Assembly: GCF_030028105.1 (NCBI RefSeq)
Contig: NC_092383.1
Location: 97,797,604-97,861,603, forward strand
Direction: 5' to 3'
Source of the DNA: Mobula birostris
Lineage: Eukaryota
DNA length: 64,000 nucleotides
Shown here: positions 8,799-39,800 of the stretch, in pieces
Layout of the letters: every line of letters starts with the position of its first letter
How positions within the stretch are numbered: the stretch's first letter is position 1
Position numbers and translations under genes: made by a program
The notes under the pieces: generated by a model
The model's input: only the letters and a program-made list of their open reading frames with translations
What the model was told of the DNA's origin: nothing
The model's database searches: none

Positions 8799-11700
8799 AA
8801 GATGGTGCCGGTAACTGGCGACTTTGCGCGTACTCTCCCGAGCAAACTGCCCTCTCCACTATCTTATACCCTAGAAACCCTTCTAAACCTCCAATCTAGC
8901 AAGATCGAGATCAACAACACCCCGGCGAAGCTATTGACCCAGCTGGAGACCACCGCACCAGAATTGCTTCTTAAACACCGGACCGCACCAGGACCCAACC
9001 AGCGAGGCCCACCACGTTCCCGGAGACCCGCGGTCTGCTACCGTGCCGGAGCGCTTGGAGACACGGCCCATTCCGACCAGCACCTCTCCGGAGCAGACGA
9101 CCACACAGAAGTGACGGCGGAGACCTCAAGGTGACCCAGACACTTCCCCGGAGTGACCACCATAAAGCCCCGTTGGTGGCCATCCACAGCTGCCGGAAGT
9201 GAGGCCTCCGCTGCCGACGTCGGAAATTGAGCCCGAGGCTCGGCTGGAGCGGAGGCCTCCGCAACCGTGACTCGGTTTACAGACTTGTTTCAGCCAGGAG
9301 CCCGGCCCTCCGGGATTAAGTGTCGGCTTCGGGGCCCGACCCAATTGACAGCCCGGGCCCCCGGCAGCGGAGCTCCCCCCCCCCACCCACGTCACTCGGC
9401 CCGACCCGGAGTGCCCAACGATGTGACTTGCCGATCGATCCCCGCGGGACGCGTCCACCAACCTCAAAGAGCTGACAACAACACACTGCATCGATGGAAA
9501 CCTGGAAAGATGCACTACTTACCGAGGAAGTGTGGGAAAAGAGCTGGGCTGCTGGTCAGATTGAAGCTGAGGGGCTTCAGGGTCCCTGTGCCCACTATCC
9601 TACTAGCTAATGTGAAAGCCATAGAGAACAAGGTGGATGATCTTAAGGGAGACTCACCTACTGCAGGGAAATGCAGAACTGCTGTGTATTCTGTTTCACT
9701 GAGACCTGGCTCTCCCCTACCACCCCCGACTGTGCCATCTGACCGGAGGGATTTTCGATCCATCGGATGGACCGCACGGCGTCTTCGGGCAAGACAAGGG
9801 GAGGTGGTGTCTGCCTACTGATCAACACTGCGTGGTGCTCGGACACAGTGGCACTGACAAGCTCCTGCAGCCCGGACCTGGAACACCTGTCGGTGAAGTG
9901 TCGTCCCTACTATCTGCCACAGGAATTCACCTCGGTCATACTGACAGCAGTCCACATTCCCCCCCATGCAGACGTGGAGTGTGCTTGGAACATACTGTAT
10001 GCCAACATCAGTGAACTTGAGACCAGGTATCTGGAGGCTTTACTCATTACAGCCAGGGAATTTAACCAGGCCAACCTCAGAAAGGAACTGTCAAAGTTAT
10101 ACCAACATGTCTCCTGCCCCACTGGAGGCCCGAATATACTTGACCACTGCTACACAGCAGTCAAGGATGCCTACCGTTCCGTCCCACGACCTCACTTCGG
10201 AAAATCGGACCATCAGGCCGTACTCGTCCTTCCGGCTGACAAACAGAAACTGAAGCGGGAGGTCACAGTGTCAAAAGTAGTGTCGTGTTGGACGGAGGAA
10301 ATGGATGAGGTCCTCCGTGACTGCTTTGAATCGGTGGACTGGTTAGTATTCAAGGACTCGGCAGCTAACCTCGATGAGTATGCCTCAGCTGTCACGGAAA
10401 TCATTAGGAAATGCACAGAGGACTGTGTGTCTCGCAAGATGATCCGGGTATTCCCCAACCGGAAACCTTGGATGAATTAAGAGGTAAAGTCCCTTTTAAA
10501 GGCTAGAGCTGCAACTTTTAGGTCCGGGGATAGCAGTCGCGACACGGAATCCAGGCGTGAACTCCGGAAAGCCATTAAGGGCACCAAGAGGCAATATCGA
10601 GTCAAGTTGGAAGCCCAGGCTAATCAGAGGGATACCAGTAGATTAAGGCAGGGTCTAAATGAGATCACTGGGTGAAAGAAAAGGCTGGGAATATCAATAA
10701 CTGTGGCGCTTCTCTTCCTGACGAACTTAATGTATTCTACGCAAGATTCAAACAGAAGAGGAGCATCCCGCTCCCTCCGGATGAACCGGACCTGGTGGCA
10801 TCGAGATTCATCATCACCGAGGAGGACGTTAGAAGGGCCTTCCTGAAGATAAATACAAGGAAGGCGACAGGCCCAGATGGCGTCCCAGGACGGGTTCTCC
10901 GGGCCTGTGCAAGCGAGCTAGCTGGAGTGTTTGCTGACATCTTCAACTGCTCCTTGCTTCAGTCTAAGATCCCCTCGTGTTTTAAGAAGGCAACGATAAT
11001 CCCAGTGCCGAAGAAGAGCAAGGCGGCATGCCTGAATGACTATCGACCTGTGGCTCTGACATCAATTGCTATGAAGTGCTTCGAGAGATTGGTTATGGCA
11101 CACATCAACCACAGCCTACTGGTCAACCTCGACGCTTTGCAATTCGCCTATCGGAGCAACAGGTCAACAGCAGATGCCATCTCTCTGGCCCTACATTCCT
11201 CCTTAGAACACCTGGAGAATAAAGACACATACATAAGGCTCCTTTTTGTTGACTACAGCTCTGCCTTTAATACCATCATTCCAAATAAACTGATTCCTAA
11301 ACTCCGGAACCTGGGCCTTAGCACTCAGATCTGCTGCTGGATCTTCAACTTCCTCACAGACAGGATCCAGGCTGTAAAAATAGGGGACAAGCTCTCCTCT
11401 ACAATCACTCTGAGCACCGGTGCCCCAAAAGACTGTGTACTCAGCCCCCTGCTGTACTCACTGTACACCCATGATTGTGTAGCCAAGTTTCCATCAAACT
11501 CAATATATAAGTTTGCTGATGACACAACAATTGTAGGTTATATCTCAGGTAGTGATGAGTTTGAGTACAGAGAGGAAATTAAGAACCTGGTGGCATGGTG
11601 CGAAGACAATAACCTATCCCTCAATGTCAGCAGGACAAAGGAATTAGTTGTTGACTTCAGAAGGAGTAGCAGACCGTGCGACTCAATTTACATTGGTGGT

Positions 11701-12440
11701 GCACAAGTGGAACAGGTCAAAAGCTTTAAGTTCCTCAGGGTCAATATCACAAATGACCTGACTTGGTCCAACCAAGCAGAGTTCACTGCCCAGAAGGCCC
11801 ACCAGCACCTTTACTTCCTGAGGAAACTAAAGAAATTTGGCCTGTCCCCTAAAGCCCTCACTAATTTTTATAGGTACACCGTAGAAAGCATTCTTCTCGG
11901 GTGCATCACAACCTGGTATGGAAGTTGTCCTGTCCAAGACCAAAAGAAGCTGCAGAAGATCGTGAACACGGTGCAGCACATCACGCAAACCAAACTTCCA
12001 TCCTTGGACTCACTTTACACCGCACGCTGTCAAAGCAGTGCTGCTAAGATAATCAAGGACACAACCCACCCAGCCAACACACTTTTCATCCCTCTTCCCT
12101 CCGGGGGAAGGCTCAGGAGCTTGAAGATTCATACGGCCAGATTTGGGAACAGCTTCTTTCCAACTGTGATAAGACTGCTGAACAGATCCTGACCCGGATC
12201 TGGGCCGTACCCTCCAAATATCCGGACCTGTCTCTCGGTTTTTTTGCACTACCTTACTTCCCATTTTTCCATTTTCTATTTATGATTTACAATTTAAATT
12301 TTTAATATTTACTAATTGTTACTATTTTTAATATTTAATATTTGTAATCCAGGGAACGGGAAGCGCAGAATCAAATATCGCTGTGATGATTGTACATTCT
12401 AGTATCAATTGTTTGGCGACAATAAAGTATAAGTATAATG
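8799..12440 (+). mobile_element. Near full-length Rex1/Babar-clade non-LTR retrotransposon (APE endonuclease + RT), inactivated
   Basis: 5' AAGATGG start, CpG-rich leader, RKCGKRAGLLVRL...PTILLANV, APE motifs (GGGVC, GNFN-like, ILDHCY, GKSDH), 506-aa RT ORF 10672-12192 (GPDG, YRPVALTS, QFAY, DYSSAFNT, PQ-like, FADD), 3' UTR with AATAAA and (aagtat)n tail. Lesions: frameshift ~9645, stop 10478, frameshift ~10670. Possible 10-bp TSD ataatggaat 8789-8798 / ataatgtaat 12435-12444. Confidence 0.92.
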
Positions 12441-24127: not shown

Positions 24128-27100
24128 AGGAATTCCTGCACTCCTAATTCCCTTAGATTAACTCTCATCATCTGTCTCTGTATCCCATACTTCTTGCAAC
24201 TCAGAACTATATGTTCTACTGACTCCTCTTCCTGACATTTCTCACACAATCCTGGTGTTTCCCTATCATTTTCAATGTTTTGTTTAATGCACAGTGCCCT
24301 AGCCTTAACTGAGTCCACACAGTTTCCTCTCTTCTGTATCCACTACCTACCCTAGTACCTGCAACACTCTTTTGTATTTGATATAAGTGCCTCCCTTTCC
24401 CCTCCCTGTCCCATTTTTCTTGTCACAATTGGTTGATTTTTTTCCCAGATTACACACTTAACCTCTGCTCTACTGATACTAATGTGCATTTCGATATTTT
24501 CTTTCTTTAACGCCCTCTTTGCCAATTCATCCACCCTCTCATTTCCCTTCACCCCTACATGTGCTGGAACCCATAGAAATTTTATCTGACCTCCCTGATT
24601 TGCAATTCTTGTGACTGACTGAAGGACTTCATAAAGTACATCTTGCCGACTGTTTAAGTGAAAAGACCTAAAACTTGTTAGAACTGAGGATGAATCTGAG
24701 CATATCAATGCTTTGACTTGTCTAGCTTTCTCCACCCATCACAACACAACCAACACTGCCAGCATCTCCCCTGTATGCACCCCTAATTTATTAGATGTTC
24801 TTCTGATTCCAATTTCTTTTGTTCGTATAGCCACTCCAAACCCTGTCACTCCTGTTTCAGGTTCCTTAGCACCATCCGTATAAATCTGAGTATAATCACT
24901 ATACTTTTCCATCACATGACAGTTAAATGCACTTACCAAATCAGTTTTATATTTTCCTTTCCTTCTTACCTCTAACAAATGCCAGTCTATGACAGGCCAT
25001 ACAAGCTTCCATGGAGTTACAACCGGATAAACTACTGAAGGACTTATCCTTAGATCAAACACTTCACATTCTTTAGCAATATCATTCCCTACCCATCTAA
25101 AGTTGTCCCTCTGAAACCTCCCAGTTTCCCAGCACTCCTGCAACACTCGTTTTGTAGGGTGAGAATACTTTATACTTTGTACTTCATTGTCGCCAAACAA
25201 TTGATACTAGAACGTACAATCATCACAGCGATATTTGATTCTGTGCTTCCTGCTCCCTGGATTACAAATATTAAATATTAAAAATATTAATAGTAAAAAC
25301 TAGTAAATATTAAAAATTTAAATTATAAATCATAAACAGAAAATAGAAAAATGGAAAGTAAGGTAGTGCAAAAAAACCGAGAGGCAGGCCCGGATATTTC
25401 GAGGGTACAGTCCAGATCCGGGTCAAGTTCCGTTCAGCAGTCTTATCACAGTTGGAAAGCTGTTCCCAAATCTGGCCGTACGAGTCTTCAAGCTCCAGAG
25501 CCTTCCCCCGGATGGAAGAGGGATGAAAGGTGTGTTGGCTGGGTGGGTTGTGTCCTTGATTATCCTGGCAGCACTGCTCCGACAGCGTGCGGTGTAAAGG
25601 GAATCCAAGGACAGAAGATTGGTTTGTGTGATGTGCTGTGCCGTGTTCACGATCTTCTGCAGTTTCTTTCGGTCTTGGACAGGACAACTTCCATACCAGG
25701 TTGTGATGCACCCTAGAAGAATGCTTTCTACAGTGTATCTATAAAAGTTAGTGAGGGTTTTAGGGGGCAGGCCAAATTTCTTTAGTTTTCTCAGGAAGTA
25801 AAGGCACTGGCGGGCCTTCTTGGCAGTGAACTCTGCATGGTTGGACGAAGTCAGGTCATTTGTGATATTGACCCCGAGGAACTTAAAAGCTTTTGACCTG
25901 TTCCACTTGCGCACCACCAATGTAAATTGAGTCGCACAGTCTGCTACTCCTTCTGAAGTCAACAACCAATTCCTTCGTCTTGCTGATGTTGAGGGATAGG
26001 TTATTGTCTTCGCACCATGCCACCAGGTTCTTAATTTCCTCTCTGTACTCAAACTCATCATTACCCGAGATACGGCCTACAATTGTTGTGTCATCAGCAA
26101 GCTTATATATTGAGTTCAATGGAAACTTGGCGACACAATCATTGGTGTACAGTGAGTACAGCAGGGGGCTAAGTACACAGTCTTGTGGGGCACCGGTGCT
26201 CAGAGTGATTGTAGGGGAGAGCTTGTCCCCTATTTTTACAGCTTGGGTCCTGTCTGTGAGGAAGTTGAAGATCCAGCTGCAGATCTGAGTGCTAAGGCTC
26301 AGGTTCCGGAGCTTAGGAATCAGATTATTTGGAATGATGGTAGTAAAGGCCATAGTCAATGAAAAGGAGCCTTACGCATGCGCCTTTATTCTCCAGGTGT
26401 TCTAAGGAGGAATATAGGGCCAGAGAGATGGCATCTGCTGTTGACAGGTAGGCTGTGGTTGATGTGTGCCATAACCAATCTCTCGAAGCACTTCCTAGCA
26501 ATTGATGTCAGAGCCACAGGTCGATAATCATTCAGGCATACCACCTTGCTCTTCTTTGGCACTGGGATTATCGTTGCCTTCTTAAAACACGAGGGGATCT
26601 TAGACTGAAGCAAGGAGCAGTTGAAGATGTCAGCAAACACTCCAGCTAGCTCGCTTGGACAGGCCTGGAGAACCCATCCTGGGATGCCGTCTGGGCCTGT
26701 CGCCTTCCTTGGATTTATCTTCAGGAAGGCCCTTCTAACGTCCTCCTCGGTGACGATGAATCTTGATGCCACCAGGTCCGGTTCATCTGGAGGGAGTGGG
26801 ATGCTCCTCTTCTGTTGGAATCTTGCGTAGAATATGTTAAGTTTGTCAGGAAGAGAAGCGCCACAGTTATTGATATTTCCAGCCTTTTCTTTGCGCCCAG
26901 TGATCTCATTTAGACCCTGCCATAGTCTACTGGCATCCCCCTGGTTAGCCTGGGCTTCCAACTTGGCTCAATATTGCCTCTTGGCACCCTTAATAGCTTT
27001 CTGGAGTTCATGCCTGGATTCCGTGTCGTGACTGGTATCCCCAGACCTAAAAGCCGCAGCTCTAGTCTTTAAAAGGGACTTGACCTCATAATTCATCCAA

Positions 27101-30100
27101 GGTTTCTGGTTAGGGCATACCCGGATCGTCTTGTGAGACACACAGTCCTTCGTGGATTTCCAAATAAAGTCCGTGACAGCTGAGGCATACTCATTGAGTC
27201 CTTAAATACTAACCAGTCCACTGATTCAAAGCAGTCATGGAGGACCTCATCCATTTCCTCCATCCAATGTGATACTACTTTTGACACCGTGACCTCCTGC
27301 TTCAGTTTCTGTTTGTAAGCTGGGAGGAGGAGTACGGCCTGATGGTCTGATTTTCCGAAGTGAGGTCGTGGGACGGAACCTTAGGCACCCTTGACTGCTG
27401 TGTAGCAGTGGTCAAGTATATTCGGGCCTCTAGTGGGGCAGGAGACATGTTGGTATAACTTTGGCAGCGCCTTTCTGAGGTTGGCCTGGTTAAAGTCCCC
27501 GGCTGTAATGAGTAAAGCCTCCGGATACCTGGTCTCAAGTTCACTGATGTTGGCATACAGTATGTTCAGAGCGCACTCCACGCCTGCCTGGGGGGGAACG
27601 TAGACTGCTGTCAGTATGACCGAGGTGAATTCCCGTGGCAGAGAGTAGGGACGACACTTCACCAACAGGTGTTCCAGGTCTGGGCTGGAGGAAATTGTCA
27701 GTGCCACTGTGTCCAAGCACCATGCAGTGTTGATCAGTAGGTAGACACTAGCTCCCCTCGTCTTGCCTGAAGACACCGTGCGGTCCATGCGATGGATCGA
27801 AAAATCCCTCTGGTCGGATGGAACAGTCAGGAGTGCCAGGGGAGAGCCAGGTCTCAGTGAAACAGAATACACAGCAGTTCTGCATCTCCCTGCAGTAAGT
27901 GAGTCTCCCTTTAAGATCATCCAAGAGAATCATTGTGCCCCTGCAAATTAGCCCATCAATTGCATCCTTTTTAGTTCCAAATGAATTACTCCCACTTCTA
28001 CCTCTAGGGCTGATACTGGTGATGTTTTGAAAGCCCCACTGCACAATCTCAAAGCCTGAGCCTGAATCACATCCAGTTTCCTTATAAGAGACCTAGCTGC
28101 TGATCCCTATACTATATTTCCATAGTCCAACACAGATCTTACTAAAACCACATACATTCTCTCCAACGCTGAACAATTTGCTCCCCATTCCCTACCAGTC
28201 AAATATCTCATCACATTTATTACTTTTTTACATTTCTCCTCAACTTTCCTGATATGTCTGCCAATGTTAATTGTGAATCAAATATAACTCCCAGAAATTG
28301 AAATGATTCAACCCTTTCTAATTCAATCCCATACATCCTTAACTTCTTCCCTACCTCAATTTGTTTCCTGGTAAAAAATACAGTTTGAGTTTTTTCTACA
28401 GAAAATCTACATCCCCAATCATAACCCCACTCCACCAATTCATCAATTGCTCCTTGTAGTTTCCTGATTACATGCTCCATGTTCCTGCCTCTTTTCCACA
28501 AGGCCCCATCATCCGCAAAGTGACCTACCTATATCCACTGATACCTTTGTGAAGACATCATTGATCATAATGATGAAAAGTAACGGGCTAATCACACTAT
28601 CTTGTGTGCCATTTCCCACTATGTACTGTTTTGATAATTCTGATCCAATCCAAACTTGAATTTTTCTACCAAACAAAAATCTTTAATCCAATTAAAAACT
28701 TCCCACCAACCCCCATCTTGTGCAGTTTGATTAACAATCATTCCTTCCACATCATATCATAGGCTTTTTCTATGTCAAAAAACACTGCAACTACTGACTC
28801 TTTATTTGCCTGGACCTTTCTTATTTCAGTCTCTAACCTTATCACTGAGTCCATGGAATTCCTTCCCTTCCTAAAACCACTCTGATAACTTGCCAGCATT
28901 CCCCTCTTCTCAAGCTCATACAATAACCTTCTGCTATCATCCTTTCCATTATCTTACATATATTTGATGTTAATGCTATTGGTCTATAGCTAGTGGGTTT
29001 TGACGGATCCTCGCCAGGTTTCCTTATTGGAATTACTACTGCTTCTTTCCATGCACTTGGTAATCTTCCCTCCTCCCACACTCTGTTATAAAAATGCAGC
29101 AACTTCAAGAGCACTCCTTCTACTAGATTTTGTAGCATATCAGATCTTTCCCTGGGGAGGTTGGTTTCAATCTCTTTAGTGCTCTCACCATTTCTGCCAA
29201 CGTAAATGGATCATCAATTATATCATCAGTTTCTTCCCTCCTGTTTAACACACCTGGGTGTTGACTCATTGTTCTTTCCCTTCTCCTTCTCCCTTCTTCA
29301 GACAAATTTTCTGAACTGTGTATCTGTACGAACAACTTGGGATGATCTCAGCCTTATCCCTACAGGAGACTGCGGTTTCCTCCTCAGGTATCATTGCTGG
29401 ATATTCCCATTCCCTTCCATCTCCTCCCATTCTCTTAATCATTCCCCATACCTCTCCCACAGGTGTTGTTCTTCCTATTTTGTTGCAAAAACTCCTCCAA
29501 CTTGCCCTTTTAGCTTGACGTATAGTTCTTCTCACCACTGCCTGTGCCTTCTTATATTGAATCAAATGCTGCATATGATGGGTTCTTTTAACTAGCCTGA
29601 ATGCTCTATTTCTGTTTTTTTTTACAGCCTGACAACATTCCTCTGTCCACCACGGTACCAGTTTTCTATTCTTCCTATTTTTACTCATGGGTATAGATCC
29701 TTCTGCGGCCATAATTGCTGAAGTCACCTGACTGTTTAATTCATCTATATTTCCAGAAATGTCAATCCTTGTCAATGCTTCTTCACTCAACTTCTGGAAC
29801 TTACCCCAGTCTGCTTTTCCAAACACCCACTTTGGGATTCCACCACCTGGTCTTACTTCAACTCTTTCACCCACTGAACATAAAACTGAGTAGTGATCAC
29901 TGCCTACTGCTGAAGCAGTCCAAACACCCCAGTTACTAACTCCAGCCAAGGTATTAGACACTGATGTATATCTAATACTGACTCCATTCCTGTTGTTATG
30001 TATATCCGTGTTTCTCTACCATCATTCATACACACCAAATCCCACTCTTCCATCAAATCTTCAATTACCTTTCCTTTTGAATCTGTAATCCGATCCCCCC

Positions 30101-31392
30101 ATATTGTGCTGTGAGCATTGAAATCTGCACACCACACTACTTTATGTCTGTTTTGTCCTTGTATTCTTAATAGGCTGTCCAAGTCCAACCTTTTACATGG
30201 ATTGTAGTAGGTAATTATAACCACTTCCTCCCCTCTCTCTCACACTTCCGCCACTATGTATTCCTGATCTTCTCCTTTTTCCAGTACCCTATATGGTATA
30301 CCTTGCTTGGTTAGCATAGCACAATCCCTTCATCCCCCTAGATTTCTATCTTTCCTTATCATTGTATACCCATATACCACAAAGTCTAAAGTTGGTTTCA
30401 ACCAGGTTTCCTGAATACACACTGCATCCAGTTTTACAACCATTTCTTTAATAAAGAGCTTGAACTCCTGGCTATTGGCCAGTAAGCTCCTTGCATTCCA
30501 TTGCAAAAGAATCACCATAATTAGTATTAACCAACCTATGACACTTCCTGGCTTGACTGATTAGTGAGGTTCTCCCTCACTTCTTCCCATGTCAGTCCTA
30601 CTACTAACCCTAAGTGGTTCACTGCTGCTTTGACCACCAGCTGGATTTTGTCACTTTTTGACTTTACCTCAGCCGTACTATTAATCACTCCTGCAATGAA
30701 TGTTAATAGAGCATTTTTGTCTACATAAATCCTGTCATTTGTTCTTTGTTGCATCTCTTGCGTTCCTATTGCTCCCTGTTCATTAGGAGCATTATTCTGT
30801 TCTCTTGACATTCTTACAGCTTCTGCATAAGTGATCTTTCTTTTCACTCTTATTTCTTGAATTTTATTCTCCCATCTCATAACCTCACACCCACTACACG
30901 TCACAATATCTCTACAATTGCAGCATTTTGGTTGCACTCCTATTCCGCACTTTCCATTTTCATGATCACCCCCACATCTAGCACATCTCCTCTGCCTTTT
31001 ACAGTTTTTAGCTATGTGTCCAAACCTTTGACAATTATAGCACCTCAATGGCTTTGGCACATACACCCTTACTGGGTAACTCATGAAAACCAGGAACACC
31101 TTCCTCGGCACTCTTTCTTCTTCAGATTCAATCAATACTGTTCCACTTTTCTTTTTCACTCCCTCCTTTGTTGTTTTCAGTCTTTGAACATTCATTACTT
31201 TTCCTCCTTTAATATTCCTCTAACTCCTCCATATTTATACTCATTGTTATCCCCACGATCACTCCTTTACAACCACCGCCATTTTGTGCTCCCACCCTCC
31301 CTGTGTCTTCCACTTTGCATTTGCTTATCTCTTTTCGCTTGAGTGCTTTCTCAAGTTGTTCCTCATTCGCACATCTTACCAAAAGGTTGCCA
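24128..31392 (-). mobile_element. Nimb/I-clade LINE (gag-like ORF1; ORF2 APE-RT-RNase H-zinc finger), decayed and interrupted
   Basis: ORF1 GNLLVRCANEEQLEKAL...PKPLRCYNCQRFGHIAKNC..CARCGGDH (CCHC knuckles); ORF2 MVILLQWNARSL...CIQETWL, YRPIALTS, QSGFRKGR, FFDIEKAYD, FADD, RNase H IYTDGAK / ICSDS / LWVPAHVGVKGNE, C-terminal CEKC...EHIVLSC. Confidence 0.92.
25167..27924 (-). mobile_element. 5'-truncated Rex1/Babar copy inserted into Nimb ORF2, with 6-bp TSD
   Basis: Close paralog of 9630-12440; TSD GAGAAT at 25161-25166 and 27925-27930; removing it rejoins Nimb ...ANLQGHND|SHPTKRVL...; internal deletion between two GTCAAC direct repeats near 26445. Confidence 0.92.
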
Positions 31393-31396
31393 TTAT

Positions 31397-32056
31397 TGTT
31401 AACTTAAAAAGGTTGCCGGACCAATAATCACACCACACAGTTACTAACTTTAACCTCTTCACCAGTTTATTGTTCAAGCTCAGCCGGTGTGAAAAAATTG
31501 AAGCTGGACATGAAAGAGACAGAGTTTATCTCTCTGTCCCTCTGGCAGCTCAATGAGCTTCTGATTTAAAAAACAGAAATACTACAATTTATAGAATGAG
31601 CAAAGAACACTCAGTTACAATGATATACCAAGTCAGTTAGAGCGAAACCCAGTTACTTTGATAAGAGTCCACTAAATCAGAGTTTAATTACAAATAGATA
31701 CATTGTCCACCCCATATCAGTCATTCCTGTCGCTAGGCCCCTGACTTAATTACAGACAGATGGCTTTATCATTGACCCTCTCCAAAGAAAAGACTTAAGT
31801 CAGTGGAGCAAAACAATAAGGTATGACCTATGTGAGCTCTGAGTAATTCCAGCCCTCATGTCACCTTGAAAAAGGCAGCTACAGGCTATTAATCAAGCAA
31901 GCAATTAATCTAAACAAACTGTAGGCATATTCTTCAGTGAAAGCAACAGAGTTTGTTCACTAACACACATAGGGTGGCACTTAAGTTTTTTTAACCCATT
32001 ATTTACAAGAGTCCAAGAATCATGTCTTACTTCCCCAACATCCTTAAACTTTATTA
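31397..32056 (-). mobile_element. ERV 3' LTR (U3-R-U5)
   Basis: Preceded on - by PPT AAAAAGGAGAGAA (32057-32069); TATAAA at 31588-31593, AATAAA at 31466-31471, ends ...TTAACA near 31397. Exact termini uncertain by ~10-15 bp. Confidence 0.7.
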
Positions 32057-32087
32057 TTCTCTCCTTTTTATCATCACATGATAACTT

Positions 32088-32250
32088 TCAGAACAGATTG
32101 TCACTTCTACAACATGATACAATACATAGCCACAAGCACCGTAGGGTACAGATAATAATCAAAGTTAATACCATTTTCCTTAATCCAAGGGAGTCCTTCT
32201 ACTCAGTTCCTTCAGTGACGTTTGCAGTCTGTTCAATGTATCCTCCGAGA
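32088..32250 (-). mobile_element. Remnant of ERV env transmembrane subunit C-terminus
   Basis: [16 protein letters not shown] (heptad-like), then after a frameshift GLRKMVLTLIIICTLRCLWLCIVSCCRSDNLF* (hydrophobic anchor with Cys cluster) immediately upstream of the PPT. Confidence 0.55.
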
Positions 32251-32253
32251 GTG

Positions 32254-33991
32254 CCCCTCCACAAATGCACTGGGTAGCTTATGGTACACAGGGGCCAGTG
32301 TTCGAATATGGCAGATTAATTCATCCAGGAGCATTGGCTCAATAAGGTCAGTTTCTTCTGCAATTAGAGGTTTTTCTGCCAATACAACTTCTTTTGCTGC
32401 CACTGGATCTGTGGAATGTAGACGCCAGTATATATAGCCGCGGTCTTTCAAGTCAAGGTTGTCAGAGTCCTGTGTCGCCAAGCTTAGAACTTGCTGCACC
32501 AGCTCTTGTATCTCAAGTCGTTTTTTTTATAATAGTTTTACAATAGTAGTCAAAAGTTGCAGTTGAACCTGTATGCTCTCATCATGGAATCCTTCCAGGA
32601 AGCGCTCTCATAGCTCATCAGCATTGTCAGTTCTTTCGGCATACTATCCATATCATCGCTACTCTTGTTTCTGGTTCATCCAATGAATCCAGATTTTCAC
32701 AAAGTGTTGCGATAACACTTTTATACTTGTTTGGGTATTTACGGAAAATGTCCATTATTACTACAATAGCTTCTTGGACGACGTAGTTTGCTTTTGTCTG
32801 AATGAAGTCAAGTAGCGTACTCATGCAGCATTCTGCTGATTGCTCATCTTTAATTGCACATCATCCAATTGCACGCACAGCTTTTCATACAAAGTCAACA
32901 TCTACTTCAGTGGCATACTCCTTCAATTCTGCCAAAACCTGCGCAATGTTGGCTTGAGAAGCCAATCAAATCACAATACCCAGTTTTTCCAGTTTCACAT
33001 ATATCTTTACAAAGAAAACCTTTGTTTTGTGCTTAAAAATCTCAGAACTTTTTTGTACAATGAGGTTGATGTTCTGGAGGGCAATATATTGGAGTTCTGG
33101 TTCTGCAGACAATAGCGTTACCAGTGGGGGAGCCAGTTTCTTCAACAAAGTGCCATAGTAATTCCAAGTCCTTTGAAAGCATTTCCATGAATTTCATCAG
33201 AACCTTTACAGCCAACAGGACAACAACTGAGTTGGCGTGAGATAGATGTGGCGTCACATGCTCACAGATGCTTTGAGCTTCTCAGTCATCCCTTGGGCTA
33301 TAAGTGGCCAAACAATCAAGGATAAATATCTGGCCCTATTCAGTACATTCATTTAAGGCTGTTAAAAGCTTGTCGATTGTCTGAAAATTGAAGTCTAACA
33401 AGTTGCTGTTTGGATGAGGTTCTGCGATCTCCGACAGAGCAGCCACAGCATTCGCAATGACCATTGGATTAGAGTCAGGTATCAGATCCTTTAGAATGTC
33501 CAGAAATCCCTGATCTTCTACCAGCTGTGAATTGATGTCATGTAGCTTGGCTACACAGACAGCAGCAGGTTTTTCGTACATAAGGGTCTTCATCCTTTAG
33601 ACATTTTCCGCAGGGGCTCACACAAATACTCAGTAATTTTATCCACATGGATGCAGCCTATTGTTCTCACAGCTAACACTCTGATAAATGGACTGGGATC
33701 TTCATAGTCCTTAACAAAAGTGTTGACAGCCACAATTGCCATATCTGGTTGGCTCTTTGCATAGTTCATTAGATAGAGGTACACCAGCTTCTTCAACTCC
33801 AAATCATCTGTCTGCATTTAGTTTATGACATCAGGAAAGAGGGCACTGACATCTTTGCCACCAGTCATTGACGTACTCACTTTCTTCACTGCTTCTTTCT
33901 TTTTCTCCTGCTTGTCACTATTGAATTCTGCTTTGACTTCGAAGATTTCTCCTTTATTGGTTGTTGCGAGATATTTAGAATCAGTCATGGC
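32254..33991 (-). pseudogene. AP1B1: Intronless AP-1 complex subunit beta-1 (beta-1 adaptin) copy, codon 1 to about codon 585 (trunk domain only)
   Basis: gccATG at 33988: [45 protein letters not shown]...; continuous to ...VYHK.PSAFVEG with no introns. AP1B1- rather than AP2B1-type residues ([49 protein letters not shown]). Stops (e.g. 33818-33820), frameshifts and a 4-codon deletion (VK[YNDP]IYVK). Confidence 0.93.
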
Positions 33992-34774
33992 GAGTGTGGT
34001 CCTCTCCACCGAAGTCCGAGTTTCCCTGGATCCTAATTCTTGACCAGGACAAAATCTCCAGGCTCACTCATGGGGTAGTCACCTTTCGGCTGGGTTTCGT
34101 CTTCCCGATAGGCCTGTCGTACCTGTAAATGCAAGCTTTAGAAAGTTTTAGTAATTTGCATAAATATTTTCCCATCTCCTCCGCCAAGGTATGCATATCC
34201 AATGTTGCAAGTAAGCTCTCAGGGAGGAGCAGCAAACAAGGTCGGGGTCCCATGGGGTTCTCATAGGCTTCCCGTAGATAATTTCTGCAGGTGATAACCC
34301 CGTCTTACTTGATGGCGTGATTCTCATATGGAATAGGGCTAAGGGTAAAACCTTCAACCAGGTAAATCCAGTTTCTTGTGTAAGTTTGGCCAACTTATCT
34401 TTCAAGGTACCATTGGCTCACTCCACTATGCCGGCTGCTTTCGGATGATGGGTGCAGTGGAACTGTTGTTTTATAGCTAACTCCTTGCAAATTTCCTCAT
34501 TTATTTTGGCAACAAGATACGGTCTATTGTCCGAGCTTATCATTTCCGGAAGTCCATAGCGAGGAATTATTTCTTTTAGCAATATTTTCACAACAGTCCA
34601 GGCGGCATTATTAGTTGTAGGAACAGCTTCAATCCATCTGCTAAGTACATCTACTATCACTAAGCAATACTTATAACAATGCACTCTAGGTAATTCTATA
34701 AAATCAAGTTGTAAACAAGAAAGAGGTCCACCAGGCAAGGGGGTAGTTCCAGACACACAAGGCATCCCCTTCTC
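33992..34774 (-). mobile_element. pol: Class I (gamma/epsilon-like) ERV integrase, core and C-terminal domain
   Basis: LQLDFIELP...LVIVDVLSRWIEA...EIIPRYGLPEMISSDN...HPKAAGIVE (DDE), LAKL.QETG.TWLKVLPLAL..MRITP..KTGLSPAEIIYG.P, then PGDFVLVKN*...LRWRGPH (GPY/F motif). Confidence 0.92.
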
Positions 34775-36445
34775 AGCAACACACATAAAAGCAGGTCAGG
34801 CAGCATCTCTGGGAAGAAGTACAGTCGACGTTTCAGGCCGAGACCCTTCGTCAGGACTAACTTACAGAAGAGCTAGTAAGAGATTTGAAAGCGGGAGGGG
34901 GAGGGTGAGATCTGAAATGATAGGAGAAGACAAGAGGGGGAGGGATGGAGTCAAGAGCTGGACAGTTGATTGGCAAAAGGGATATGAGAGGATCATGGGA
35001 CAGGAGGCCTAGGGAAAAAGAAAGTGGGGGGAAGCCCTGAGGATGGGCAAGGGGTATACTGAGAGGGTCAGAGGGAGAAAAGAGAGAGAAAAAGAATGGG
35101 TGTATATAAATAAATAAATGACGGATGGGGTATGAGGGGGAAGTGGGGCATTAGTGGAAGTTTGATTAGTCAATGTTCATGCCACCAGGTTGGAGGCTAC
35201 CCAGACAGAATATAAGGTGTTGTTCTTCCAACCTGAGTGTGGCTTAATCTTTACAGTAGAGGAGGCCGTGGACAGACATATCAGAATGGGAATGGGACGT
35301 GGAATTAAAATGTGTGGCCACTGGGAGATCCTGCTTTCTCTGGCTGACAGAGCGTAGGTGTTCAGCGAAGTGATCTCCCAGTCTGTGTCAGCTCTCGCCA
35401 ATATATAGAAGGCAGCATCGGGAGCACCGGACGCAGTATATCACCCTAGCCGACTCACAGGTGAAGTGTCGCCTCACCTTAAAGGACTGTCTGGGGCCCT
35501 GAATGGTAGTGAGGGAGGAAGTGTCAGGGCATATGCAGCACTTGTTCCGCTTACAAGGTTAAGTGCCAGGAGAGAGATCAGTGGGGAGGGATGGGGGGGG
35601 GGAACGAATGGACCAGGGAGTCACGAAGGGAGCAATCCCTGCAGAAAGCAGAGAGTGGGGGAGGGAAAGATGTGCTTAGTGGTGGGATCCCGTTGGAGGT
35701 GGCGGAAGTTACGGAGAATAATATGTTGGACCCGCAGGCTGGTGGGGTGGTAGGTGAGGGCCAGGGGAATCCTATTCCTAGTGGGGTGGCGGGTGGATGG
35801 AGTGAGAGCAGATGTGCGTGAAATGGGGGAGATGCGTTTGAGAGCAGAGTTGATGGTGGAGGAACGGAAGCCCCTTTCTTTAAAAAAGGAGGACATCTCC
35901 TTCGTCCTGGAATGAAAAGCCTCATTTTGAGAGCAGATGCGGCAGAGATGGAAGAATTGCGAGAAGGGGATGGCATTTTTGCAAGAGACAGGGTGGGAAG
36001 AGGAATAGTCCAGATAGCTGTGAGAGTCAGTAGGCTTATAGTAGACATCAGTAGATAAGCTGTCTCCAGACATAGAGACAAAAAGATCTAGAAAGGGGAG
36101 GGAGGTGTCGGAAATGGACCAGGTAAACTTGAGGGCAGGGTGAAAGTTGGAGGCAAGGTTAATGAAGTCAACGAGCTCAGCATGCGTGCAGGAAGCAACG
36201 CCAATGTAGTCGTTGATGTAGCAAAGGAAAAGTGGGGGACAGATACCAGAATAGGTTTGTAACATAGATTGTTCCACAAAGCCAACAAAAAGTCAGGCAT
36301 AGCTGGGACCCATACGGGTGCCCATGGCTACACCTTTAGTTTGGAGGAAGTGGGAGGAGCCAAAGGAGAAATTATTAAGAGTAAGGACAAATTCTGCTAG
36401 ACGGAGCAGAGTGGTGGTAGAGGGGAACTGGTTAGGTCTGGAACC
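34775..36445 (-). mobile_element. Neptune-type Penelope element, 5'-truncated (RT C-half, GIY-YIG, pLTR)
   Basis: TLNNFSF...LQTKGVAMGTRMGPSYA, YINDY, LPFLD, YKPTDSH.YL, GIY-YIG, EEQHLIF.LGSLQPGGMN, pLTR ending tgtgtgttgct at ~34775. Confidence 0.9.
34822..34859 (-). ncRNA. Apparently intact minimal type I hammerhead ribozyme
   Basis: Minus strand TAGTC-CTGACGA-A-GGGTCTCGGCCT-GAAA-CGTC-GACTG. Confidence 0.8.
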
Positions 36446-37526
36446 CAAAACCTATTCTGATATCTGGGGGACACTTTTCCTTTGCTACATCGACGACTAT
36501 ATTGGTGCTGCTTCCTGCACGCATGCTGAGCTTGTTGACTTCATTAACTTTGCCTCCAACTTTCACCCTGCCCTCAAGTTTACCTGGTCCATTTCTGACA
36601 CCTCCCTCCCCTTTCTACATCCTTCTGTGTGTATCTCTGGAGACAGCTTATCTACTGATGTCTACTATAAGCCTACTGACTCTCTCAGCTATCTGAACTA
36701 CTCCTCTTCTCACCCTGTCTCTTGCAAAAATGCCATCCCCTTCTCGCAATTCCTCTGTCTACGCCGCATCTGCTCTCAGGATGAGGCTTTTCATTCCAGG
36801 ACGAAGGAGATGTCCTCCTTTTTGAAAGAAAGGGGCTTCCTTTCCTCCACCATCAACTCTGTTCTCAAACGCATCTCCCCCATTTCACACACATCTGCTA
36901 TCACTCCATCCTCCCGCCACCCCACTAGGAATAGGGTTCCCCTTGTCCTCAACTACAACCCCACCAGCCTCCGGGTCCAACATATAATTCTCCATAACTT
37001 CTGCCACCTCCAACGGGATCCCACCACTGAGCACATCTTTCCCTCCCCTCCCCATGCTTTCTGCAGGGATCGCTCCCTTCACAACTCCCTGGTCCATTCA
37101 TTCCCCCCCATCCCTCCCCACTGGTCTCCCTCCTGGCACTTATCCTTGTAACTGGAACAAGTGCTAGACATGCCCTTACACCTTCTCCCTCACTGCCATT
37201 CAGGGCTCCAGACAGTCCTTCCAGGTGAGGTGATACCTCACCTGTGAGTCGGCTGGGGTCATATACTGTGTCCGGTGCTCCCGATGCGGCTTTCTAAATA
37301 TTGGTGTGACCCGACACAGGCTGGGAGATCATTTTGCTGAACACCTACGCTCTGTCGGCCAGAGAAAGCAGTATCTCTCAGTGGCCACACATTTTAATTC
37401 CACATCCCATTCCCATTCTGATATGTCTATCCATGGCCTCCTCTACTGTAAAGATGAAACCACACTCAGGTTGGAGGAACAACACCTTATATTCCGTCTG
37501 GGTAGCCTCCAACCTGGTGGCATGAA

Positions 37527-37715
37527 CATGTCACCTTGAAAAGGCAGCTGCAGGCTATTAATCAAGCAAGCTATTAATCTAAACAAACTGCGGGCATATT
37601 CTTCAGCGAAAGCAACAGAATTTGTTCACTAAGACACGTAGGGAGGCACTTAAGTTTTTTAACCCATTATTTACAACAGTCCAAGAATCACATCTTACTT
37701 CCCCAACATCCTTAA
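37527..37715 (-). repeat. Duplicated ~190-bp segment of the ERV LTR embedded in the Penelope copy
   Basis: Aligns by eye to 31857-32047 with about a dozen substitutions and two homopolymer indels; ends in a perfect 20-bp palindrome 37704-37723. Confidence 0.9.
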
Positions 37716-37757
37716 GGATGTTGCTAGTCATTAAGGACTAGCTAGAGCTAACCCAGT

Positions 37758-37795
37758 TAGTCCTGACGAAGGGTCTCGTCCCGAAACGTCGACTG
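37758..37795 (+). ncRNA. Apparently intact minimal type I hammerhead ribozyme
   Basis: TAGTC(37758-62)-CTGACGA(37763-69)-A-GGG TCTCGT CCC-GAAA(37783-86)-CGTC-GACTG; predicted cleavage after C37790. Confidence 0.85.
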
Positions 37796-37892
37796 TACCT
37801 CTCCCTAGAGATGCTGCCTGGCCTGCTGCGTTCTCCAGCAACTTTGATGTGTGTTGCTTGAATTTCCAGCATCTGCAGAATTCCTCGTGTTT

Positions 37893-38030: not shown

Positions 38031-38084
38031 GCCTACCCCGATCCCAAATCCCTATCCCGCTCCTTCCCCACTATCTCCCTCCCC

Positions 38085-39220
38085 CCAATCGCCTTGTCCG
38101 CCATTACCGGACCCGCGCTACCCCCCCCCCCAGCAACTCCCGAACCTTCCCCACTCTCTTTTCCTCAACACCCCCCCGTTGTCCGCCATTACCGGGCGCA
38201 ATTCCCGAACCTTCCCCACTCTCTTTTCCTCAACACCCCCCCATTGTCCGCCATTACCGGGCGCAATTCCCGAACCTTCCCCACGCTCTTTTCCTCAACA
38301 CCCCCCCATCATCTTGTCCACCATTACCGGACCCGCGCGACCCCCCCCCCCCAGCAACTCCCGAACCTTCCCCACTCTCTTTTCCTCAACACCCCCCATC
38401 ACCTTGTCCGCCATTACCGGACCCGCGCGACCCCCCCCCCCACAGCAATTCCAGAACCTTCCCCACTCTCTTTTCCTGAACACCCCCCCCCCCCCGTTGT
38501 CCGCCATTACCGGGCGCAATTCCCGAACCTTCCCCACTCTCTTTTCCTCAACACCCCCCCGTTGTCCGCCATTACCGGGCGCAATTCCCGAACCTTCCCC
38601 ACTCTCTTTTCCTCAACACCCCCCCCCCGTTGTCCGCCATTACCGGGCGCAATTCCCGAACCTTCCCCACTCTCTTTTCCTCAACACCCCCCCGTTGTCC
38701 GCCATTACCGGGCGCAATTCCCGAACCTTCCCCACTCTCTTTTCCTCAACCCCCCCCCCCCGTTGTCCGCCATTACCGGGCGCAATTCCCGAACCTTCCC
38801 CACTCTCTTTTCCTCAACACCCCCCCCCCCGTTGTCCGCCATTACCGGACCCGCGCGATCCCCCCCCCCAGCAACTCCAGAACCTTCCCCACTCTCTTTT
38901 CCTCAACACCCCCCCCCCCCGTTGTCCGCCATTACCGGGCGCAATTCCCGAACCTTCCCCACTCTCTTGCCGTCAACACCCCCCCCCCCATCACCTTGTC
39001 CGCCATTACCGGACCCGCGCGACCCCCCCCCAGCAATTCCCGAACCTTCCCCACTCTCTTTTCCTCAACACCCCCCCCCCGTTGTCCGCCATTACCGGAC
39101 CCGCGCGACCCCCCCCCCCAGCAACTCCCGAACCTTCCCCACTCTCTTTTCCTCAACCCCGCCCCATCATCTTGTCCGCCATTACCGGGCGCAATTCCCG
39201 AACCTTCCCCACGCTCTCTC
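38085..39220. repeat. CpG-rich minisatellite, ~15 units of two variants (~65-70 bp and ~85-90 bp)
   Basis: Core gtccgccattaccgg...cccgaaccttccccactctcttttcctcaacacc(c)n; variant order B A A B B A A A A A B A B B A (A = gggcgcaatt, B = gacccgcgcga(c)n agcaa). Confidence 0.95.
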
Positions 39221-39229
39221 CGTCAACAA

Positions 39230-39800
39230 GTGCCAAGCCACACTCCAGCATGAGGGAAGAGACCGGGTGAACAATAAGGCCGGGCTGCGGGCTCACTAAA
39301 TTCCTGCCTTTCCGAAAGCGCTCGCCGGCTGTAACCCATAACCGGAAACCCTTCCCGTCGTTTTCTCTCGACAGCCTCCGAGAATCTGGATCGCCCGAAG
39401 GCCGGCAGGTGCGGCGCTCTCTCTCCCCAGGATGGTCTCGTCCCTGCTCTCTGTGGCCGTCTGGGTCGCCTGTGTGGGTAAGGTCACCGGTACTGTAGTG
39501 GTTAGAGAGCAGGTTGTACAGCGGTGAGGGAGGGAGTGACCGCGGTGAGCCTTTCAACGCGCTGTGTGTGATCCGAAAGAGGAGTGATTGACCTCGGCCT
39601 CCCTTCACCTTTCCTTCCTCAGCCCCAACCGCAGCCCGAGCTCCGACAATCTCAGGCTCATTTTCTCGCCACCATTTCCGAGGTTTAGTTTCGGTGATGG
39701 GCTCTGCTTGTGGAGCAGTCAGTGCGTCGGGTGTTCACTGCAGGCGGAAGACCTTTCTGCCCGTCGTGGCATTCTCTGGGTCTGCTAGACCACTACGACA
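39230..39800 (+). promoter_or_regulatory. CpG-island-like promoter/first-exon region
   Basis: Non-repetitive GC-rich sequence with many retained CpGs in a window where old repeats are CpG-depleted; surrounds a signal-peptide exon. Confidence 0.5.
39432..39477 (+). CDS. Probable signal-peptide exon of the CD2/SLAM-like receptor
   Basis: ATG at 39432, MVSSLLSVAVWVACV+G, phase-1 donor G|GTAAGG at 39478; splices in frame to 61778 giving MVSSLLSVAVWVACVAGTGA-SPTTV. Linkage across 22.3 kb is inferred. Confidence 0.55.

Follow-up and report, generated by a model that had tools for sequence, protein, structure and literature searches.

A reverse-transcriptase-less endogenous retrovirus carrying a spliced AP1B1 messenger in the genome of Mobula birostris

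The window analysed here, a stretch of 64,000 nucleotides of the Mobula birostris genome (C18:97797604-97861603), contains on its minus strand, in this order, a retroviral integrase core, an AP1B1 sequence, a short viral stretch, a polypurine tract and an LTR (Table 1). This order, obtained by reading the sequence and from Pfam matches, agrees with the original prediction. The integrase core matched the Pfam family rve (E=1e-14) and, in the PDB, retroviral integrases, while the host-derived insert matched Adaptin_N (E=2e-82). The 3' LTR has the termini T(G/A)AT...ACA, as in all the copies described below. As had been anticipated, the insert is complete at its 5' end, with the ATG at 33988 overlapping the new stop of the integrase, is truncated at its 3' end, which corresponds to codon 584, and shows neither poly(A) nor a target duplication at its borders, the longest word shared by the flanks being of 6 nt and located away from them. 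This copy of AP1B1 is broken by 7 in-register stops and several frameshifts. The stretch following AP1B1 (32256-32088), in contrast, had been read as some 50 codons of TM, and only about 28 codons of it, encoding the membrane anchor and tail, proved to be so; the remainder comprises the last 19 codons of the integrase, a spacer and the env ATG. Upstream of AP1B1 there is a motif that probably represents, judging from its sequence, a candidate env splice acceptor; a search with a strict pattern recovered it from 11 of 17 AP1B1 copies and from all five sisters, where it lies 225-259 nt upstream of the env start. The insertion that replaced the gag-pro-RNase H region of the window copy is, presumably, Penelope-like on the basis of its motifs, and a Pfam match was obtained for none of the three ORFs tested in it.

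Table 1. Coordinates of the features of the AP1B1-bearing element in the window, followed by the proviruses that carry DNA2 elsewhere in the genome
Feature	Position	Strand	Basis
3' LTR, 660 nt	31397..32056	-	two-LTR copy on C27, 86% to each of its LTRs
Polypurine tract	32057..32069	-	sequence; position common to all copies
env remnant, in which the start codon abuts the membrane anchor and cytoplasmic tail of TM	32088..32174	-	aligned with the env-bearing sister L071
Final 19 integrase codons, continuing the frame of AP1B1 codon 584 as far as the pol stop	32199..32256	-	MLVIN_C spans the place in sisters
Captured spliced AP1B1 mRNA (11-13 nt of 5' UTR, then codons 1-584, the trunk domain)	32255..33999	-	parent exons; PDB
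Integrase core and first half of C-terminal domain, to GPY/F-type motif	34000..34778	-	Pfam rve; PDB retroviral integrases
Splice-acceptor-like motif (branch point, pyrimidines, ACAG/G boundary)	34123..34153	-	strict pattern; 134 nt before AP1B1 ATG
Later insertion with inverted arms, replacing gag-pro-RNase H of the window copy	34790..37827	.	inverted repeats I2, I6, I24
5' LTR remnant, its beginning folded back into a palindrome, without the target site	37527..37715	-	92.7% to 3' LTR over 191 nt
DNA2 carriers	L074:6060-7680 (C29:61.84 Mb); L072 (C1:175.29 Mb); L075 (C4:190.65 Mb)

The parent AP1B1 gene was located at C36:23.907-23.938 Mb, where 12 matched exons with GT-AG borders splice to 598 stop-free codons. 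When two of these exons were compared with the PDB, the best match was AP-1 beta-1, and one of them was identical in 82 of 82 residues. The window copy, 6.7% diverged from the parent, spans 11 of 11 parent exon joints, and the same is true for 12 of the 22 copies in the genome, the other 10 missing part of the stretch. The capture of a spliced mRNA by an endogenous retrovirus (ERV), with loss of viral sequence at the joints, is thus borne out by these 11 exon joints and by the disappearance of 40 nt of virus. These 40 nt belong to the integrase C-terminal domain; they are present in 5 of 5 close sisters and absent in the chimeras, and AP1B1-free sister proviruses read through the domain (MLVIN_C). 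At the 5' joint, virus and host overlap by 3 nt exactly, or by 6 nt against the more distant sisters L081 and L082, and at the 3' joint the overlap is of 1-5 nt and imperfect, all these being raw values. In the host, the 5' joint falls within an exon, about 10 nt downstream of the acceptor; in the virus it falls within the integrase codon run, a position with no splice site.

The family to which the element belongs is a peculiar vehicle. The N-terminus of the reverse transcriptase (RT) is joined straight to RNase H in 33 of the 34 members with a match, among 44 examined. The alignment of an RT-bearing batoid protein with the family extends as far as the QYPLK motif at the RT N-terminus, and RNase H begins at most 36 nt later. 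Because the RT core is missing, the family is non-autonomous, env-bearing members included, and RT would have been needed in trans. Among the 12 of 102 RT-like matches that were compared, no close RT-bearing helper was found, only short stretches at 68-82%; an ERV protein of Mobula hypostoma gave a 93% match at one place in the genome. The hallmarks of class I were a match to MLVIN_C (E=1e-9 to 1e-10), another to TLV_coat (E=1.6e-8) and a CX6CC motif in L071 and L082. The primer site that follows the 5' LTR shows complementarity to the 3' end of tRNA-His genes, and the four loci submitted to ARAGORN were all called His; a primer binding site for tRNA-His is characteristic of epsilonretroviruses. 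From its integrase tail, TM and primer site, the family can be placed among the class I (gamma/epsilon-like) ERVs. The AP1B1-bearing genome, with both its RT core and env deleted, is replication-defective. As for the tRNA-His genes, an array of about 35 matches to their 3' end, many of them 10 kb apart and two called as tRNA-His genes, occupies C4:116.5-117.3 Mb. In addition, both this family and RT-bearing batoid ERVs possess, between protease and RT, a domain characterised by PHVT and HTT motifs (L052:4852-5223, L053:4470-5018, P0001). We assume from its motifs that it resembles a 2H phosphoesterase; no Pfam match to it was obtained, and the term was not found in the literature searched.

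The original prediction placed AP1B1 in place of env. This did not hold, as what AP1B1 replaced was the 40 nt of integrase, and the deletion of env is a separate lesion. When this deletion was mapped, as had been proposed, on the env-bearing sister L071, whose env matches TLV_coat (E=1.6e-8) and contains CX6CC, about 1.1 kb was found to be missing at one breakpoint. In the 19 copies read at this place the joint is direct in 15 and carries an insertion in two; the window copy lacks a further 40 nt, and one copy has lost the joint. A precursor-like form is the provirus L198 (C21:0.569-0.578 Mb), which has both LTRs, a CCTC duplication, the identical env deletion and an intact integrase tail, with no AP1B1. 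Because the env deletion also occurs in this AP1B1-free provirus, the loss of env and the capture of AP1B1 were separate events. The simplest order would place the loss of env before the capture, although the C21 provirus could be a later recombinant instead of a precursor.

The distribution of the chimera in the genome was established by locus searches with both ends of the insert, in which all candidates were scored (33 of 33 and 30 of 30) and 30 loci were fetched from each. Of the loci fetched, 27 of 30 spanned the 5' joint and 29 of 30 the 3' joint; the exceptions were host exons and two halves of copies into which something had later inserted, and no AP1B1 retrocopy outside an ERV context was found among the loci from both searches. 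After merging segmental duplicates, the chimera occupies 22 insertion loci on 14 contigs, some of them without one or both joints through later deletion. Full copies measure about 7.8 kb from LTR to LTR. Among the 10 copies with both outer LTR ends, five have perfect 4-bp target duplications (CATC, GGTA, TATC, AGCA and GTGA), three have duplications with one mismatch, and two (C11a and C12b) have none. The LTRs of eight pairs differ by a K2P distance of 0.034-0.096, which would correspond to 77-218 My at the rate assumed in PMC4422223; this rate is described as uncertain in that paper itself, and the age is best stated as tens of millions of years or more. The identical joints at dispersed loci, the paired LTRs and the 4-bp duplications indicate, therefore, that the chimera was re-copied as a unit. 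The original prediction had named identical joints with different flanks as the sign of such copying, and these are what was found; likewise, the alignments to sisters and to the two-LTR copy confirmed its view that the LTR and the TM remnant belong to the integrase-bearing family. Contigs from public sequencing runs bridged the 3' joint in organism A (with no single record showing both joints), the 5' joint in organism B and the 3' joint in organism C, so the chimera is older than one species; in organism D (run X12), no joint-bridging contig was present among the matches listed, and this organism was counted neither for nor against. None of the runs listed as containing the sequence was recorded as RNA.

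The segmental duplicates that were merged comprise two copies on C18 (99.6% alike with their flanks), seven on C38, two on C32 and, on C9, a cluster that has been rearranged. A second copy of the window element and its surroundings, covering at least 6.9 kb at 99.6%, lies about 283 kb from the first (C18:97.55 Mb, L070), as a result of either a recent duplication or an assembly artefact. The region C38:14.6-16.5 Mb contains one insertion in seven copies and in both orientations, with an identical 3' flank in three of the seven checked, and constitutes a large segmental duplication array in which RT-bearing ERV copies also occur. Dozens of near-identical family copies with env remnants are concentrated on contig C17, which may reflect segmental or heterochromatic amplification.

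The evolution of the cargo was followed by counting substitutions relative to the host coding sequence over codons 1-583 in the 22 copies. Changes private to one copy amounted to 167 synonymous, 484 non-synonymous and 23 stop changes, whereas the mutation spectrum leads to an expectation of 26.7% synonymous (P=0.28). In the same order, changes in exactly two copies numbered 52/98/4, slightly above expectation, those common to at least three copies 29/80/10, and the non-CpG changes that define five clades 14/36/1 (P=0.88). The cargo is neutral on both terminal and internal branches, with no purifying selection during or after the spread, and all near-full copies are broken, with no intact, selected ORF. 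In a tree of 18 AP1B1 copies (C9y, C11b, C11c, C6c and C16 were left out as duplicate or short), the topology is star-like, with one firm clade of seven copies (bootstrap 100). A +1 insertion near nt 380 is common to the members of this clade, and those that cover the place also have a 12-nt deletion in common; copying therefore continued after the frame was broken. Thus, the comparison of shared lesions and substitution ratios with the parent gene, recommended at the outset, yielded a common frameshift in the seven-copy clade and neutral ratios. The host differs from nearly all copies at 22 positions, of which 19 are synonymous (4.9% on 390 sites) and three are not (M110I, R520K and S572P). 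The latter, although unpolarised, are likely to have arisen on the viral stem because the residues are conserved in solved beta-1 chains. The 4.9% synonymous divergence, also unpolarised, would fit the evolution of the host gene since the capture. In the integrase tree, from which C19, C3, C6c and C11c were left out, the AP1B1 copies do not form one clade, its deep branches having 27-66% support and two copies grouping with sisters (73 and 78). Given this lack of monophyly, the flanks may have recombined with those of sisters.

A second cargo was identified in three sister proviruses (Table 1), all six candidates of the corresponding search being scored. It consists of a 1.6 kb spliced piece of DNA2 in which three introns are gone (Pfam Dna2, E=9e-18) and whose parent, at C25:20.02-20.04 Mb, stays open for 548 codons across the matched exons; a comparison of the DNA2 exon with the PDB gave no match. 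This piece starts in the middle of the gene and replaces env from the ATG, which is destroyed, through to the TM anchor, with an overlap of 6 nt at the 3' joint, again a raw value. Its private changes, 53 synonymous, 146 non-synonymous and 5 stop, indicate neutral decay. No third cargo was found on reading the sequence that precedes the TM remnant in 16 of 30 fetched loci, known AP1B1 copies being excluded, and that which follows the integrase in 23 of 30; the stretches held env remnants, DNA2 or repeats, and five unexplained ones had no Pfam match to a host gene. More cargos may exist, because 40 of 75, 40 of 370 and 40 of 478 candidates were scored in these searches.

All these observations are very probably integrated by assuming that the element is a dead copy of an RT-less ERV whose lineage gained AP1B1 in a single event, through two template switches involving a co-packaged mRNA, and which was then copied by helpers as a neutral passenger. 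The family, devoid of the RT core, would have relied on the enzymes of a helper, with RT acting in trans. The env gene would have been lost first, giving rise to the AP1B1-free, env-deleted form that exists on C21. Minus-strand synthesis would then have left the integrase tail for codon 584 of the mRNA, and a second switch, just upstream of the AP1B1 ATG, would have returned it to the virus. A burst of intracellular retrotransposition in the germ line would have followed, with a later wave after the ORF had suffered the frameshift, and the cargo experienced no purifying selection during and after the spread. The DNA2 form would represent an independent capture in a sister lineage by the identical route.

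A different proposal, which we regard as unlikely, is that the cargo was at first a selected accessory gene of the virus, in which env splicing made the AP1B1 ATG the first start, and which decayed after endogenisation. Its product, as deduced from the sequence, would be the AP-1 beta-1 trunk without hinge and ear, and it could disturb the sorting of host membrane proteins; the AP-1 hinge is known to bind clathrin. The ends of the insert are suggestive, since it begins 11-13 nt before the ATG and finishes at codon 584, where the trunk constructs of PDB 1w63 and 7r4h (584 residues) stop as well, but this neatness was noticed post hoc. AP1B1 also runs in frame into the integrase tail, to its stop or near it, in 13 of the 18 copies read, and the acceptor-like motif lies 134 nt upstream, with no intervening ATG in 6 of the 11 copies bearing it. 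A precedent is provided by the crocodilian captures, reported to be under purifying selection (PMC4299795). Against this, the ratios on internal branches are neutral, and the spread went on after the frameshift at about codon 127. Moreover, M110I, R520K and S572P alter residues shared by the host and the solved AP-1 beta-1 chains, and the 19 synonymous differences (4.9%) match the age of the copies, so that a selected viral stem is not needed; the DNA2 cargo, which starts mid-gene and destroys the env ATG, is neutral as well. The trimmed in-frame trunk and the upstream acceptor-like motif make an early expressed trunk possible, and nothing shows selection for it. Extending the idea, the RT-less family might be a repeated gene-capture vector whose AP1B1 lineage began as an expressed accessory gene, with the trunk fused to the integrase tail via the env splice, a scenario we consider just as improbable. 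If it were true, a clathrin-uncoupled adaptor subunit would have acted on the sorting of host membrane proteins, and this would be the first retroviral capture of an adaptor hijacked by lentiviral Nef and Vpu.

The two remaining explanations fare worse. A transduction of the classical oncogene type, with a provirus at AP1B1, a read-through or spliced hybrid RNA and a template switch at the 3' joint only, would account for the sense orientation, the complete 5' end, the truncated 3' end and the dependence on a helper. It is nevertheless very unlikely, as the 5' joint lies about 10 nt past the host acceptor and inside the integrase codon run, not at a splice site, and no match to integrase or LTR was found in the 60 kb around the parent gene. 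Segmental duplicates do occur (C18, C38, C32 and C9), which would suit either a LINE-made processed pseudogene landing in a provirus or a single locus spread by segmental duplication; yet the absence of poly(A) and of a duplication around the insert, the 3' truncation and the loss of 40 nt of virus, together with the distinct host flanks and LTR-flanking target duplications at other loci, leave this reading with almost no chance, and the last-named duplications refute it for most loci.

With the capture by two template switches as the preferred reading, the element can be compared with known systems. Acutely transforming retroviruses carry spliced host sequence in sense orientation, have lost viral genes and need a helper, and the AP1B1 element shares these traits. 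Unlike them, the AP1B1 element has no intact or selected ORF, no oncogene and no env and, lacking env, gives no sign of infectious spread. The functional likeness to oncogene transduction that the original prediction drew is not sustained, given the neutral evolution of the cargo and its spread after the frameshift. A closer parallel is found in the LTR-mediated retrocopies described across animals, with this layout and with secondary copying, by Tan et al. 2016 (PMC5131818), who cite human FAM8A1 and maize Bs1 as examples. In both, an intronless partial mRNA replaces part of an ORF of the element, is devoid of poly(A) and of a target duplication belonging to it, and leaves both LTRs in place, with secondary non-autonomous retroposition; the short overlaps at the joints of the published cases may have their counterpart in those measured here. 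The present case differs from those in its occurrence in a cartilaginous fish (the first found in print searches), its 22 loci, its precursor-like empty form and its two cargos in one family.

Multi-copy captures by ERVs, namely CrocERV31-nectin3 and CrocERV29-KIT-ligand, with 6 and 9 copies, were reported by Chong et al. 2014 (PMC4299795). According to that work, these are also multi-copy ERV lineages with a host mRNA near or in env, for which an env-less spread by retrotransposition was proposed; they are ERV4/ERV3-like and have kept their ORFs under purifying selection. AP1B1, in comparison, resides inside the integrase of a class I family and was neutral from the start of the spread, and the nectin3 layout, with env replaced, is matched better by the DNA2 lineage. 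As to the vehicle, the class I ERVs of epsilon-like type known from cartilaginous fish (Han 2015, PMC4422223) have the same MLV-type integrase tail, gamma-type TM, tRNA-His site and 4-bp duplication, whereas the RT core is deleted in the AP1B1 family. The mechanism, that is, LTR-mediated retroposition or ERV capture of mRNA, has thus already been published for crocodilians, fish, birds and mammals and is not new here. The statement that no case had been described does not stand for this kind of event, in view of PMC4299795 and PMC5131818; for AP1B1 itself, no published retroviral capture was found, although subscription journals, Repbase entries and supplements, outside the scope of the search, may hold one. 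The matches listed in the literature on shark and batoid ERVs included no such capture, and the main text of the mobulid genome preprint mentions neither AP1B1 nor retrocopies.

What this genome offers is an unusually complete fossil series, comprising env-bearing, env-deleted empty and AP1B1-carrying forms, the latter in two waves, and an independent DNA2 form. Retroviral capture followed by wide re-copying needs no benefit from the cargo, and the series provides a clean neutral control for the selected crocodilian captures. LTR elements are, in addition, to be counted among the sources from which multi-copy pseudogenes arise in cartilaginous fish, and such pseudogenes can mislead the counting of AP1B1 and DNA2 gene families.

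Three other observations were made in the window. The host site of the provirus is the first ORF of a LINE, with a zinc knuckle and an endonuclease (28800-31396). An inverted pair of 2.7-kb repeats, about 92% alike, occupies positions 9645-12432 and 25177-27911. Finally, a G-rich minisatellite with units of 65-90 nt (38050-39800) adjoins a GC-rich stretch resembling a CpG island, possibly a host promoter or first exon.
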